Source of the DNA: Methylobacterium frigidaeris
GTDB lineage: Bacteria > Pseudomonadota > Alphaproteobacteria > Rhizobiales > Beijerinckiaceae
Direction of reading: 5' to 3'
Length of the DNA stretch: 64,000 nucleotides
Assembly: GCA_036946295.1 (NCBI GenBank)
Contig: JAQIJK010000002.1
Location: 122,350-186,349, forward strand
Below the pieces are notes generated by a model, which saw only the letters and a list, made by a program, of their open reading frames with translations, made no database searches and had not been told where the DNA came from. A program made the position numbers and the translations under genes. Shown here piece by piece: positions 3,053-10,392 of this stretch (position 1 is its first letter; every line of letters begins with the position of its first letter).

Positions 3053-4012
3053 GTGACCCGCCCGCGCCGCTTCCTGCCCTCCCTCAGCCTGCTCTCCGCC
3101 TTCGAGGCGGTCCTGCGGAGCGGGTCGACCGCCGCCGCAGCCCGCGAGCTCCACCTCTCCCAGGGAGCGGTCAGCCGGCTGGTCCAGAACCTCGAACAGC
3201 AGCTCGGCCGGCCACTCTTCGAGCGGCAGAGGCGCCGGCTCGTCCCGACCGAGGCCGCCCGCGCCTACGGGCGCGACGTGACCCGGGCCCTCGATCTGAT
3301 CCAGCGCGGCAGCATGGAGTTCGTCGCCAATCCGGGCGGCGGCGTCCTGTCCCTCGCGATCCTGCCGGCCTTCGGCGCCCGCTGGCTCGCGCCGCGGCTC
3401 GGGCGCTTCGCGCTGTCGCATCCCGGCATCACGATCAATCTCGCGACGCGCCTCAAGCGCTTCAACTTCGCGGCGGAAGGCTTCGACGCGGCGATCCACT
3501 TCGGCACCGACGACTGGCGGGAGGCCGGGCACATGAAGCTGTTCGACGAGCGCCTGACGGCCTGCATCGCGCCGGAGCTGCTCGGGGCCCACCCGGTCGC
3601 GGAGGCGCGGGACGTGTGCGGCCTGCCCCTTCTTCGGATCGAGACCCGCCCCGCGGCGTGGGATCTCTGGTTCGCGGCCCAGGGCGGCACGGCGCCCGGC
3701 GGCGGCGGGATGCTCTTCGACCAGTTCGCTCCGATGATCCAGGCCGCCGCCGCGGGGCTCGGCGTCGCCCTGCTCCCGGACTATCTCGCGGAGCCGGAGC
3801 TCGCCGACGGACGGCTGCTGCCGCTGCTGCGCCCGTGCGTCGAGGGAACGGGCGCCTACTGGCTCGTCTGGCCGGCGACCCGCGCCAACTACCCGCCGCT
3901 CAAGGCGCTGCGCACCTGGCTCGGCAACGAGCTGGGCGCATCGCAACCCGGCACGGCGGCCCTCCCGGCACCGGCCGCCAGATCGGCGCGGCCGGCAGGC
4001 CGCGATCGCTGA
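3053..4012 (+). CDS. LysR family regulator (GcvA-like, GcdR-type position)
   Basis: [31 protein letters not shown]; [13 protein letters not shown]; divergent from gcdH. Confidence 0.9.
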
Positions 4013-5258
4013 AGACGATGCAGGTCGGGCTTCCGGTCCGCGCCACCGTCACGCCTGCCGAGAGGGCTCCCGTGCCGGGATCGCGCGTGAAGCGCACGAT
4101 CGTGTCGCTGTCCTCGTTGGCCACGAAGAGGTGAAGGCCGGCCGGGTCCTGCGCGAAGAAGCGCGGCGTCTCGCCCTGCGTGCCGGTCCAGCCGACGGAG
4201 CGCAGCCGCCCGCTGCCGGGCTCGACCGCGAACGCCGCGACCGAGTCGTGCCCCCGGTTGGTCGCGTAGACGAAGCGGCCGTCCGGCGAGACCTCGATCT
4301 CGGCGGCCCGGCTGAAGCCGAGGAAGTCGTCCGGCAGCGCCGGGAGTTCCTGGATCGGGCGCAGCGCGCCGCTGCCGGGCTCGTAGCGGCAGGCCATCAC
4401 GGTCGAGGACAGCTCGTTCACCACGTAGGCGTAGGGACTGCTCGGATGAAACGCGATGTGGCGCGGCCCCTCGCCCTCCCGCGTCGCGGCGGGCCGCTCC
4501 GCGGCGGGGTGGAGCTTCCCCTCCCCGTCGAGGCGATAGGAGAGGATCAGGTCGAGCCCCTTGTCGGGGACGGCGACGAAGCGGCCGGCGGGATCGAACT
4601 GGACCTGATGCGGCTTCGCGAACGGCTGCTCGACCCGGTGCGGGCCGACCCTGCCGGAGATGGGGACGTGATCGACCACCTCGCCCAGCGCGCCGTCGGG
4701 GCCGAGGGCGAGCACGGCGAGACCCGAGACGAAGCCGTCGCGCGTGACGTGGTTGGCGACCAGGAGGTGTCGTCCGGACGGGTCGACGACGAGGTGGACC
4801 GGGTTCCTGCCCCGGCAGGACGCCTGGTTGACGAAGCTCAGGCGCCCGTCCGCGGCATCGACCCGGAAGGCGCTCACCTCGCCCGCGTCGCCATGCACGG
4901 TGTAGAGCATGCGCCGCCCGTGGTCGAAGGCGAGGAAGGACGGGTTCGTCAACCCGTCGAGCAGCTGGATCCGCTCCCAGGCGCTGCCGTCGTCCGGGAC
5001 CCGGTAGACCGCGATGCCGTCCCCGCGGGCGTTGCGCGCCCGGGTCGTGCGGCAACCGACATAGGCGAGAGCGGCCCGGGAACGCGGGCGGGCCGGGCTG
5101 GATCGGGGCGTCATCGGCAGATCCTCCATGGGCATCGTCGAGGAGGCGGCGTGCGCCGTCCGGGGCGGGGCGGCCAGCAGGCCGGCGGCCATCAGGGCGA
5201 GCGCGGCGCGCCGGGGCACCGCCCGCGCGTCCCGGCCCCCGGCCGGGTGCTCGATCAT
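3900..5258 (-). CDS. Lactonase family beta-propeller protein (6-phosphogluconolactonase/cycloisomerase-like) with twin-arginine-like leader
   Basis: [53 protein letters not shown]; leader [17 protein letters not shown]. Confidence 0.85.
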
Positions 5259-7722: not shown

Positions 7723-7761
7723 GGCGCCGCGTCCCGCCCCCGGCTTCACAGAGGTAGCGTC

Positions 7762-10392
7762 ATGACACCCGTCGCAGACACCGTCCTGGCCGGCCGCGCC
7801 TGCCGCGTGATCGACCTGCCCGCCCTCGCGGGCGAGGGGCTCGGCCGGCTGCCCTGGCTGCACCGCGTCCTCCTGGAAAACCTGCTGCGCCGGGCCGCGG
7901 CCGACGACCCGGCCCGCGCCGCGGTGGCGGACTGGCTGGAGGCGGGGCGCAGCGAGGCCGAGATCCCGTTCCACCCGGGCCGGATCCTCATGCACGACAC
8001 GACCTGCGGCCCGGCGCTCGTCGACATCGCCGGCTCGCGTTCGGCGCTGGCGGAGGCCGGGGGCGACCCGGCCCGCCTCAATCCCGTCCTGCCGGTCGAC
8101 GTCTCGACGGACCACTCGGTCGCCGTCGACGTGTTCGGGCGGCCCGACGCCGTCGCCCGCAACATGGAGGCGGAGCTGCGGCGCAACCTGGAGCGCTACC
8201 GCTTCATGAAGTGGGCGACGCGCGCGCTCACCAACGTCACGGTGCACCCGCCCGGCACCGGGATCATGCACACGATCAACCTGGAGCGGCTCGCGACGGT
8301 CGCCACCACCGAGACGCGCGGCGGCGCGCTCTGGGCCGTGCCCGACACGCTGATCGGCACCGACAGCCACACCCCGATGATCAACGGCATCGGCGTGGTG
8401 GCCTGGGGCGTCGGCGGGCTCGAGGCCGAGAGCGTGATGTTCGGCATGCCGGTGATGATGCGGGTGCCGGAGGTGGTGGGCGTGCGCCTGACCGGCCGGC
8501 TGCGCGAGGGCGTGCTGGCGACCGACCTCGCGCTGCGGGTCACCAACCTGCTGCGCGGCATCGAGCTCTCGGGGCGCTTCGTCGAGTTCTTCGGACCCGG
8601 CGTCCCGACCCTCTCGGCCGGCGACCGGTCGGTGATCGCCAACATGGCGCCGGAATACGGCTCGTCGTCCGGCTACTTCCCGATCGACGACCAGACCATC
8701 GCGTATCTGCGCGCCACGGGCCGCACGGCCGAGCACGCGGCCTTCGTCGAGGCCTATGCCCGCCGGGTCGGCCTGTGGTTCGATCCGGAGGCGCGGCCGG
8801 TCTACGACACGGTGCTCGACCTCGACCTCGACACCGTGACGGTGGCGCTCGCCGGGCCGCGCCGGCCGCAGGACCTGCTCACCCCGGACCGCACCCGCGC
8901 GGTGCTGGCGCCCCTGCGCCGGGCCGACGCGCGGCCTGCGACCGCCGCCGATCCGGTGCCGGACGCCTGCGTCGCCATCGCGGCGATCACGAGCTGCACC
9001 AACACCTCCGATCCGCGCCTGCTCCTCGCCGCGGGCCTGCTGGCGCGCAAGGCGCGGGCGCTCGGCCTCGCGCCGAAGAGCTGGGTCAAGACCTCGCTCG
9101 CGCCCGGGTCGCCCACGGCCGAGCGCTACCTGCGCCGCTCGGGCCTGCTGGAGGATCTGGAGGCGGCGGGCTTCGGCATCGTCGGCTACGGCTGCACCAC
9201 CTGCATCGGCAATTCCGGCGCGCTGCCCGAGGTCGTCACCGCCGCGGTCGCGGCGCGCGGCATCCTTCCCGTGGCCGTGCTGTCGGGCAACCGCAACTTC
9301 CCCGGCCGCGTCCATCCGCAGCTCGAGGCGGGCTTCCTGGCCTCGCCGCCGCTCGTGGTCGCCTACGCCCTCGCGGGCGACGTCGACCGCGACATCCTGC
9401 ACGATCCCGTCGCGACGGCGCCGGACGGTCGGCCGGTCCACCTCGCCGAGCTGTGGCCGACCGGGCGCGAGATCGACGCCGCGATGATGTGGGCGGCCAG
9501 CGCCGACGACTACGCCCCGGCCTACGAGGCGGCCGAGGCGAATCCCGCCTGGGCGAAGCTCGATGCGCCGGTGACCGCCCTGTACCCCTGGGACCCGGCC
9601 TCGACCTACATCCGGCGCCCGCCCTTCGCCACGGTCCGGAGCGAGCCGCGGCTCGGGCACTACACCGCCGACCCGATCCTCGTCGTGGGCGACGACATCA
9701 CCACCGACCACATCTCGCCGGCCGGCGCCGTGCCGACCCGCAGCGAGGCCGCCGCCTACCTCGTCGAGCGCGGCGAGGATCCCGCCGACCTCAACGTGTT
9801 CTCGTCCCGGCGCGGCAACTGGGAAGCGATGGTGCGCGGCCTGTTCACCAACAAGACCGTCCGCAACCTGCTGGGCGAGGCGATCCCGCCGGGCAGCACG
9901 GTCTTCGCGGGGACGGGCAAGATCCTGCCGCTCTGGCGGGCGGCCGAGAGCTATCGGGAGGCGGGGCGCCCCGTGGTGATCGTCGCGGGCGAGCGCTACG
10001 GCATGGGCTCCTCGCGCGACTGGGCCGCCAAGGGCGCGAGCCTGCTCGGCGCGCGCGCGGTCCTGGCGTCGAGCTTCGAGCGCATCCACCGCTCGAACCT
10101 CGTCAACATGGGCATCCTGCCCCTGCGCCTTCCCGCCGAACGGCACCCCGCCGCGCTGGCCCTGCGGCCCGGCGATCGCCTGACGATCGACGCGCCCGTC
10201 GAGCGGCTGAGGCCGCATGCCGACATCCGCGTCACGATCCTGCGCGGGGACGGCTCGGCCGAGACCTTCCAGGCCAGGGCCGCGATCGAGACGCGCCTCG
10301 AGATCGAGGTTTTGGCGGCCGGAGGCGTGATACCGCTGATCCTGCAATCCGCTCTGGCCGACGCGAGGCTGATCGTCACGTCGGCGGCCTGA
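7762..10392 (+). CDS. AcnA-like aconitase-family hydratase, divergent active site
   Basis: DHS, GTDSHT, SCTNTS, GCTTCIGNS ([4Fe-4S] cysteines), DDITTDHISPAG, YGMGSSRDWAAKG. Confidence 0.88.
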   Translation: MTPVADTVLAGRACRVIDLPALAGEGLGRLPWLHRVLLENLLRRAAADDPARAAVADWLEAGRSEAEIPFHPGRILMHDTTCGPALVDIAGSRSALAEAGGDPARLNPVLPVDVSTDHSVAVDVFGRPDAVARNMEAELRRNLERYRFMKWATRALTNVTVHPPGTGIMHTINLERLATVATTETRGGALWAVPDTLIGTDSHTPMINGIGVVAWGVGGLEAESVMFGMPVMMRVPEVVGVRLTGRLREGVLATDLALRVTNLLRGIELSGRFVEFFGPGVPTLSAGDRSVIANMAPEYGSSSGYFPIDDQTIAYLRATGRTAEHAAFVEAYARRVGLWFDPEARPVYDTVLDLDLDTVTVALAGPRRPQDLLTPDRTRAVLAPLRRADARPATAADPVPDACVAIAAITSCTNTSDPRLLLAAGLLARKARALGLAPKSWVKTSLAPGSPTAERYLRRSGLLEDLEAAGFGIVGYGCTTCIGNSGALPEVVTAAVAARGILPVAVLSGNRNFPGRVHPQLEAGFLASPPLVVAYALAGDVDRDILHDPVATAPDGRPVHLAELWPTGREIDAAMMWAASADDYAPAYEAAEANPAWAKLDAPVTALYPWDPASTYIRRPPFATVRSEPRLGHYTADPILVVGDDITTDHISPAGAVPTRSEAAAYLVERGEDPADLNVFSSRRGNWEAMVRGLFTNKTVRNLLGEAIPPGSTVFAGTGKILPLWRAAESYREAGRPVVIVAGERYGMGSSRDWAAKGASLLGARAVLASSFERIHRSNLVNMGILPLRLPAERHPAALALRPGDRLTIDAPVERLRPHADIRVTILRGDGSAETFQARAAIETRLEIEVLAAGGVIPLILQSALADARLIVTSAA

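Follow-up and report, generated by a model that had tools for sequence, protein, structure and literature searches.

A divergent aconitase paralogue of Methylobacterium frigidaeris and its candidate cassette for a lactone-forming tricarboxylic acid

Aconitase chemistry requires a substituted malate: beside the cluster-bound C(OH)-COO- group there must be a proton alpha to a carboxylate. In the same superfamily, isopropylmalate isomerase (LeuC/LeuD) and homoaconitase apply this chemistry to substituted malates, and AcnD, which with PrpF forms the Fe/S-dependent 2-methylcitrate dehydratase system, is an AcnA-like paralogue that became a citrate-analogue specialist in a catabolic cluster. Here we describe another AcnA-like paralogue, P0001, encoded in a 64,000-nucleotide stretch of Methylobacterium frigidaeris DNA (the window; contig JAQIJK010000002.1, positions 122,350 to 186,349). 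Its gene belongs to a cassette with a GntR/FCD regulator, a transporter of the major facilitator superfamily (MFS) and a beta-propeller lactonase (Table 1). On balance, and by a modest preference, we read this cassette as an inducible module for the uptake and conversion of an exogenous, substituted-malate-type hydroxy-tricarboxylate that would also exist as a gamma-lactone. Coordinates are window positions unless a locus is named.

By sequence criteria P0001 is a structural member of the AcnA/IRP1 family, one that lacks the Gln/HQ motif and does not group with housekeeping AcnA. It shares the four-domain architecture of AcnA/IRP1 (TIGR01341) and matches human IRP1/cytosolic aconitase (PDB 2B3X/2B3Y) with an E-value of 8e-216. 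In this alignment the three cluster ligands Cys412, Cys478 and Cys481 are present. The catalytic residues D117-H118, H170, D201-S202-H203 and N294/E298 are kept, as are N511-R512, R517, R683/R684 and S750-S751-R752; all three carboxylate-binding Arg positions are retained. An earlier note on this DNA had described the Fe-S cysteines and catalytic motifs as intact, and the alignment bears this out. P0001 scores above the AcnA models NF009520 (1225 for a cut-off of 905) and, just, TIGR01341 (955.4 for 945), hence its database name AcnA. With the AcnD model TIGR02333 it stays at 754.5, below the cut-off of 1419.85.

The substrate-site motifs are those that set P0001 apart. The chromosomal housekeeping AcnA of the same genome (L002, 913 aa, 46% identical to P0001) reads MQDFTG, GICHQVNLE and GTDSHTTM, where P0001 has MHDTTC (residues 77-82), GIMHTINLE (167-175) and GTDSHTPM (199-206). 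His78 of P0001 aligns with the substrate-contact Gln of aconitases, which we take to be Gln72 of the mitochondrial enzyme. We compared 76 members of the paralogue clade with 75 other AcnA-like representatives from 50%-identity clusters. Eight positions carry a residue that is invariant in the clade and rare in the rest of the family, given here with the usual residue of the others in second place: 78 (H, Q), 82 (C, G), 115 (S, V), 171 (T, Q), 291 (V, T), 417 (D, N), 687 (W, H) and 694 (L, T). H78 and T171 are invariant in the clade; the other representatives have Q in 62 and 70 of the 75 cases, respectively. HDTTC, GIMHT(L/I)NLE and RRGNW likewise vary little or not at all across 77 of the 78 full-length clade members. 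Most of the eight residues adjoin a catalytic or cluster-binding residue or sit at most three residues away from one; our argument on pocket geometry uses only this adjacency in the sequence to known catalytic residues.

LeuC of the same genome has His at the position of the substrate-contact Gln (DRHLVHEVTS), so that the Gln-to-His change looks like a natural specificity variant within the superfamily rather than a lesion. The earlier note had listed DSHTP among the divergent motifs, together with HDTTC and HTINLE. The last two, clade-invariant and rare outside, stand; DSHTP, which several Q-type AcnA-like representatives share, is thus not diagnostic. As a separate observation, two unrelated AcnA-like lineages, P0182 and P0220, also have His at the Gln72-equivalent position (RALMHDFTG and RALLHETTD); judging by these motifs, they may be independent specificity switches.

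The phylogeny against AcnA and AcnD that the earlier note had called for separates the paralogue clade from both. In a FastTree reconstruction of 96 sequences, with Shimodaira-Hasegawa-like support and midpoint-rooted for drawing only, the clade (21 rows) forms one group with a support of 100, including the more distant Gln-to-His representatives P0121 and P0123. It stands apart from the housekeeping AcnA group, which holds P0125 and P0126, and from the AcnD-like group, which holds P0129.

A pattern scan that took a single genome for each prokaryotic species returned 427 stretches encoding a relative of P0001, mostly in Alphaproteobacteria. Our neighbourhood counts refer to the best 80 of these 427 relatives, 64-86% identical to P0001, which span Methylobacterium, Microvirga, Bradyrhizobium, Rhizobium, Neorhizobium, Agrobacterium, Ensifer, Inquilinus, Azospirillum, Paracoccus, Caulobacterales and others. 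Some of them are plasmid-borne, and the carriers are mostly plant- and soil-associated Alphaproteobacteria. In a sample of 120 genomes from the GTDB family to which this one belongs, a paralogue-type copy is present in only two others (69% and 58% identity); the remaining ones have only the housekeeping type, at 44-49%. This scarcity marks the gene as accessory.

We searched the window neighbours of P0001 against the 80 loci, clustered all open reading frames after a filter on G+C at third codon positions and annotated the cluster representatives. The most frequent partner is the GntR/FCD regulator of about 294 aa (61 of 80 loci). It is followed by TctC (43), by TctA and the propeller lactonase (27 each), by TctB (23) and by the MFS transporter (21); clustering and annotation brought up no further enzyme family common among the 80 loci. 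Gene order varies with the genus. In Methylobacterium, Bradyrhizobium and Inquilinus, the lactonase gene points away from a regulator-MFS-aconitase series. Rhizobium and Agrobacterium have TctCBA, the regulator, a divergent lactonase-MFS pair and then the aconitase, and Microvirga has the aconitase, TctC(BA) and the regulator. All 21 loci with a close MFS orthologue (69-88% identical) also have the lactonase, which suggests that MFS and lactonase form a sub-module added to a core of regulator, transporter and aconitase. In the window, MFS and aconitase genes lie on the same strand, 39 nt apart.

The lactonase matches its family profile, PF10282, over the full length (positions 2-344 of 344), and a good Shine-Dalgarno sequence, GGAGGA, lies 4 nt before its ATG. 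Its leader, RR-hydrophobic-AHA, resembles those of the twin-arginine translocation (Tat) pathway, and this leader type is conserved in eight orthologues; a start at an internal Met could yield a protein that stays in the cytoplasm. Leaders of the form RR-hydrophobic-AxA are found in the lactonase orthologues of Methylobacterium, Bradyrhizobium and Caulobacterales, while in those of Rhizobium, Agrobacterium, Microvirga, Inquilinus and Paracoccus only 4-12 residues precede the propeller, so that these forms look cytoplasmic. Among solved structures, the periplasmic gluconolactonase PpgL (6IGB, E 5e-44) comes closest. Of the NCBIfam models, the MFS protein scores best with TIGR00893 (ACS-type D-galactonate transporter subfamily), at 330.8 bits under a cut-off of 395; the HpaX model gives 322.5 under a cut-off of 615. 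The solved relatives of the linked TctC gave no hint of a ligand, the best being an uncharacterised protein (E 3e-23).

Regulator orthologues, about 294 aa long, are intact and comprise two GntR winged-helix stretches and an FCD domain. In this respect the dual helix-turn-helix GntR of the earlier note holds for the family; in the window the first helix domain is out of frame. DNA alignment with three relatives places two extra bases in the run GGGGGCCC, and the resulting +2/-1 shift severs the first helix domain from the rest, so that the gene has no single reading frame. The translation before the shift (5387-5560) matches the N-termini of the orthologues. The frameshift may be a true lesion or may stem from a homopolymer error in the assembly; if it is a real inactivation, the cassette would be derepressed.

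In 26 loci from many genera, the pattern ATTGCATTT-N12-ATGYA recurs ahead of the aconitase, MFS or TctC gene. The copy in the window, ATTGCATTTAAAGATCATATAATGTA, is the sole close match in the 5.75-Mb genome. Our genome-wide operator scan, run for further regulon members, gave no other convincing site, and the regulon here thus appears limited to the cassette. Sites of the form ATTGyrTTT..AAAyrCAAT, related to the motif between lactonase and regulator in the window, fill the lactonase-regulator spacer in L004, L050 and L011.

What acid would such a cassette handle? The genome already has a housekeeping AcnA, and the paralogue combines retained catalytic residues with invariant pocket changes; the imported acid should thus be one that the housekeeping aconitase does not handle. 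Given the substituted-malate chemistry and the three carboxylate-binding Arg, a tricarboxylate is to be expected. With a lactonase in the same sub-module as the MFS, a lactone form of the acid is implied as well. Citrate forms no gamma-lactone; isocitrate, hydroxycitrate and homocitrate do. Citrate and trans-aconitate would therefore be excluded as sole substrates, and the isocitrate isomers, hydroxycitrate and homocitrate are pointed to. Finally, the product is expected among the central metabolites, as in most genomes no additional enzyme joins the cassette.

We now propose a pathway for the cassette, with all its steps inferred from the gene content, motifs and conservation that the analysis shows. 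The propeller lactonase would be exported by the Tat pathway and open the lactone in the periplasm. The ACS-like MFS protein would then import the acid; in other genera the tripartite tricarboxylate transporter TctCBA would act instead or additionally. Inside the cell, the paralogue would carry out the standard [4Fe-4S] dehydration and rehydration on a substrate poorly handled by housekeeping AcnA. The product would be an intermediate of the tricarboxylic acid (TCA) cycle or close to it, requiring no more dedicated enzyme in most genomes. The two-winged-helix GntR/FCD protein would act as a repressor on the promoter sites and be released by the acid. The earlier note had suggested a non-citrate, possibly lactone-derived acid. 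This is partly supported by the comparative evidence: the distinct clade, the dedicated regulator and transporters, the lactonase in a third of the loci and the shared operator-like site speak for it, and the AcnA cut-offs that P0001 passes do not.

Several findings weigh against this proposal. Those AcnA scores are compatible with ordinary aconitase activity. The lactonase is present in only about a third of the loci, and its Rhizobium-type form looks cytoplasmic even though the MFS orthologues there are 75-88% identical; the MFS cargo may be the acid or the lactone. The regulator of the window itself is frameshifted. Our literature search covered the cassette, the clade, trans-aconitate use in Agrobacterium and the catabolism of hydroxycitrate and hibiscus acid; it turned up no paper characterising the clade and no enzyme assay or fitness data on it. 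Linkages to 3-oxo-tetronate and aminotransferase genes, each in few genomes, are not explained by a simple tricarboxylate route, and the 3-oxo-tetronate operons are its strongest challenge.

The paralogue could also be an ordinary citrate/cis-aconitate/isocitrate isozyme, giving extra capacity or resistance to inhibitors or oxidation when citrate, isocitrate from its lactone, or related acids are imported, with pocket changes that only tune kinetics. Passing the AcnA models and retaining every catalytic and Arg residue are what this would predict. TctCBA is the classic citrate uptake system, and an enzyme of general use could well be linked, as this one is, with unrelated operons from one genus to another. 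We nevertheless consider it unlikely, if still the explanation to be taken most seriously after our own. AcnA is already there; the Gln-to-His and seven other changes near the active site are clade-invariant and rare outside; and the paralogue has a dedicated regulator with an operator-like site. Moreover, isocitrate needs no aconitase in an aerobe that has isocitrate dehydrogenase, and this genome has five Iso_dh genes.

Some of the sporadic partners of the paralogue bear on a different reading. An operon with a 3-oxo-tetronate kinase and a 3-oxo-tetronate-4-phosphate decarboxylase, both above their NCBIfam cut-offs, ends in the aconitase gene in Ensifer adhaerens and Rhizobium Root482. These two operons (L056, the E. 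adhaerens locus, 4-10619, and L047, 71-10652) also hold an Iso_dh-family gene and an ATP-binding cassette transporter. That of L056, where gene ends overlap the next starts, has in addition genes for an Asp/Glu-racemase-like and an RraA-like protein. RraA-like genes stand directly 5' of the aconitase in L054 and L056, and the kinase-decarboxylase pair adjoins the cassette in Inquilinus and R. multihospitium. In Neorhizobium, the aconitase comes after aminotransferase and M20 peptidase genes. The Iso_dh genes beside the aconitase in L007, L032, L047, L056 and L077 form a subfamily, 53-62% identical between loci and only 33-39% identical to other Iso_dh genes, which also occurs beside the distant relative P0123. 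Amidohydro_2 genes, of muconolactone hydrolase-like type, are found in five loci. A signal-less SBP_bac_3 protein also appears in five; its best solved relatives are cyclohexadienyl dehydratases, enzymes that evolved from binding proteins, and for this reason it may be an enzyme rather than part of a transporter. None of these sporadic partners is linked to the cassette in the present genome.

From such operons one may picture a sugar-derived branched or hydroxylated acid, for example a breakdown product of ascorbate, whose route ends in 3-oxo-tetronate and dihydroxyacetone phosphate, with the lactonase opening a sugar-acid lactone. The aconitase gene follows those of the kinase and decarboxylase directly or after the RraA-like gene, with Iso_dh in both operons; the nearest solved relative of the lactonase is a gluconolactonase, and ACS-type MFS proteins commonly carry sugar acids. 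We hold this to be distinctly improbable: the link exists in only 4-5 of the 80 loci, OtnK and OtnC are chromosomal and unlinked in this genome, and the aconitase mechanism and the Arg residues already named point to a tricarboxylate. A literature search for a bacterial ascorbate pathway gave nothing usable.

Less probable still, and in our view very unlikely, is a trans-aconitate hydratase, or a dehydratase of a non-natural isocitrate diastereomer (allo-isocitrate), yielding citrate or cis-aconitate for the housekeeping enzyme. Here a transporter and one enzyme would suffice, and the hosts are plant-associated; trans-aconitate, an inhibitor of aconitase, abounds in grasses (PMC11495376). However, trans-aconitate has no lactone, which leaves the lactonase-MFS sub-module unexplained, and its known assimilation uses aconitate isomerase, not an aconitase. 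Allo-isocitrate, for its part, is rare in nature. An AcnD-type methylcitrate enzyme is ruled out by the AcnD model score, the separate clade and a PrpF-family gene that is the only one in the genome, chromosomal and unlinked, in keeping with the earlier observation that prpF and prpC are missing from the cassette.

Within the lactone-forming tricarboxylate proposal, our leading specific candidate, still unproven, is hydroxycitrate with its lactones (hibiscus acid and garcinia acid). By one route, elimination of the tertiary hydroxyl and of the proton on the CH(OH)COO- arm would give enol-oxalosuccinate, to be decarboxylated to 2-oxoglutarate. By another, isomerisation and oxidative decarboxylation of the Iso_dh type would lead to 4-hydroxy-2-oxoglutarate, which an RraA-like aldolase could cleave; the occasional presence of Iso_dh and RraA-like genes would find an explanation in this second route. 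The sporadic Iso_dh, Amidohydro_2 lactonase-like and RraA-like partners fit the logic of an isomerase followed by an oxidative decarboxylase and an aldolase or decarboxylase. According to a review, hydroxycitrate and 2-oxoglutarate are interconverted by a 112-kDa bacterial enzyme with a Km of 0.35 mM, for which no gene is known (PMC4945632). It is a speculative idea, to which we give a low probability, that the paralogue is the gene of this orphan 'hydroxycitrate dehydratase (decarboxylating)'. That would make the cassette the first pathway to be described for the catabolism of hydroxycitrate and its lactones, running from lactonase and MFS or TctCBA through the dehydratase to oxalosuccinate and 2-oxoglutarate.

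Table 1 Features of the cassette and its surroundings. Positions refer to the window, except where a locus is named.
Feature	Position	Strand	Evidence
Family III CoA-transferase	520-1707	-	Open reading frame listing and family scan
Acyl-CoA (glutaryl-CoA-type) dehydrogenase	about 1727-2900	-	Translation read; no Pfam/NCBIfam match
LysR regulator	3053-4012	+	Open reading frame listing and family scan
7-bladed beta-propeller lactonase, 452 aa from ATG 5258	3900-5258	-	PF10282, E 6e-98
AT-rich operator/promoter-like motif in the divergent lactonase-regulator spacer	5269-5291	.	Resembles the motif preceding the MFS gene
GntR/FCD regulator, whole gene	about 5387-6279	+	PF00392 and PF07729
First GntR winged-helix domain (MPRPSLVPQV...), out of frame with the remainder	5387-5560	+	PF00392, E 3e-10
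Frameshift site, +2/-1, in the run GGGGGCCC (G5C3) inside the regulator gene	about 5550-5557	+	DNA alignment with three relatives
Regulator remainder: wing of helix 1, second winged helix, FCD ligand domain	5561-6279	+	FCD PF07729, E 2e-13; frame of the open reading frame 5377-6279
Operator-like site ATTGCATTTAAAGATCATATAATGTA	6290-6315	+	Overlaps a TATAAT-like box; MFS start 85 nt further on
MFS transporter, ACS-like (anion:cation symporter type)	6400-7722	+	PF07690, E 1e-45
AcnA-type aconitase paralogue P0001, 876 aa	7762-10392	+	PF00330 and PF00694
LOV/PAS histidine kinase, blue-light type	11371-12879		NF010077 335 bits; BluLightHisKinLov 306 bits, under cut-off
Leaderless SBP_bac_3 protein adjoining the paralogue, other loci	L004:10812-11555; L016:10624-11382; L019:4905-5657; L042:10610-11353		

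The window has a G+C content of about 72% and lies on contig C2, a 350-kb second replicon; the nearest relatives are Methylobacterium hispanicum, M. crusticola and M. sp. NEAU 140. On the lactonase side of the cassette, the CoA-transferase, acyl-CoA dehydrogenase and divergent LysR genes (520-4012) make up a separate, adjoining glutarate-type module. We had considered them as part of a pathway from homocitrate through 2-oxoadipate to glutaryl-CoA and dropped this, as none of the 80 related loci has a match; LysR matches in these loci are few and only 26-28% identical. On the other side, about 1 kb separates the aconitase from the next gene (10393-11370), with a lower G+C content (0.64-0.67). 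The longest open reading frame of that stretch (10497-11324, TTG start) has no Pfam or NCBIfam match, and M. hispanicum has a signal-less SBP_bac_3 gene in its place. A scan for consensus promoters and terminators gave nothing significant.

A more distant locus, that of P0123 (52% identity; L093:6860-16641), has a long-form GntR gene that points away from an operon encoding the aconitase paralogue, Iso_dh and a tripartite ATP-independent periplasmic transporter (DctQMP), with an Amidohydro_2 and an Ldh_2 gene after this operon. Its gene content marks the locus as a variant of the cassette, in which the lactonase-like family is another one and the dehydrogenase is dedicated.

More than 400 species genomes carry the paralogue annotated as plain AcnA; if its substrate differs, this is a systematic mis-annotation. 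A different substrate would also mean a new specificity class in the aconitase family, beside AcnD and homoaconitase, and an unrecognised rhizosphere carbon source, a lactone-forming tricarboxylic acid; it could give a gene to an orphan enzyme activity. The dual-winged-helix GntR protein and its clear operator-like site offer a ready route to the inducer, and hence to the substrate.

The lactonase belongs to the same 7-bladed propeller family as PpgL of P. aeruginosa and the YbhE 6-phosphogluconolactonase, with moderate similarity; PpgL is periplasmic, whereas many orthologues of the cassette lactonase lack a signal peptide, and the latter is co-regulated with an aconitase paralogue, not with glucose oxidation genes. 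Components of a Salmonella-type TctCBA system flank the paralogue at the frequencies given above, and the window has the MFS transporter instead; solved Bug-family binding proteins are no more than distant relatives of the linked TctC. LeuC/LeuD and homoaconitase share with P0001 the His at the Gln72-equivalent position (LVHEVTS), and they pair with an Iso_dh-family dehydrogenase as the paralogue does in L093, L007 and L032. However, they are short, two-subunit enzymes whose match to P0001 amounts to 28% identity over 350 residues, and P0001 keeps the gamma-carboxylate Arg of aconitases. In comparison with AcnD-PrpF, the cassette of P0001 is without prpF, prpC and prpB, and AcnD-like representatives keep the Gln/HQ motifs. 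From AcnA itself, with which it has the cluster ligands and the full catalytic and Arg set in common, P0001 differs by the Gln72-equivalent His, by HT for HQ and RRGNW for RRGNH, and by five more invariant near-catalytic changes, as well as by its separate clade, its dedicated regulator and transporters and its accessory, plasmid-borne distribution.

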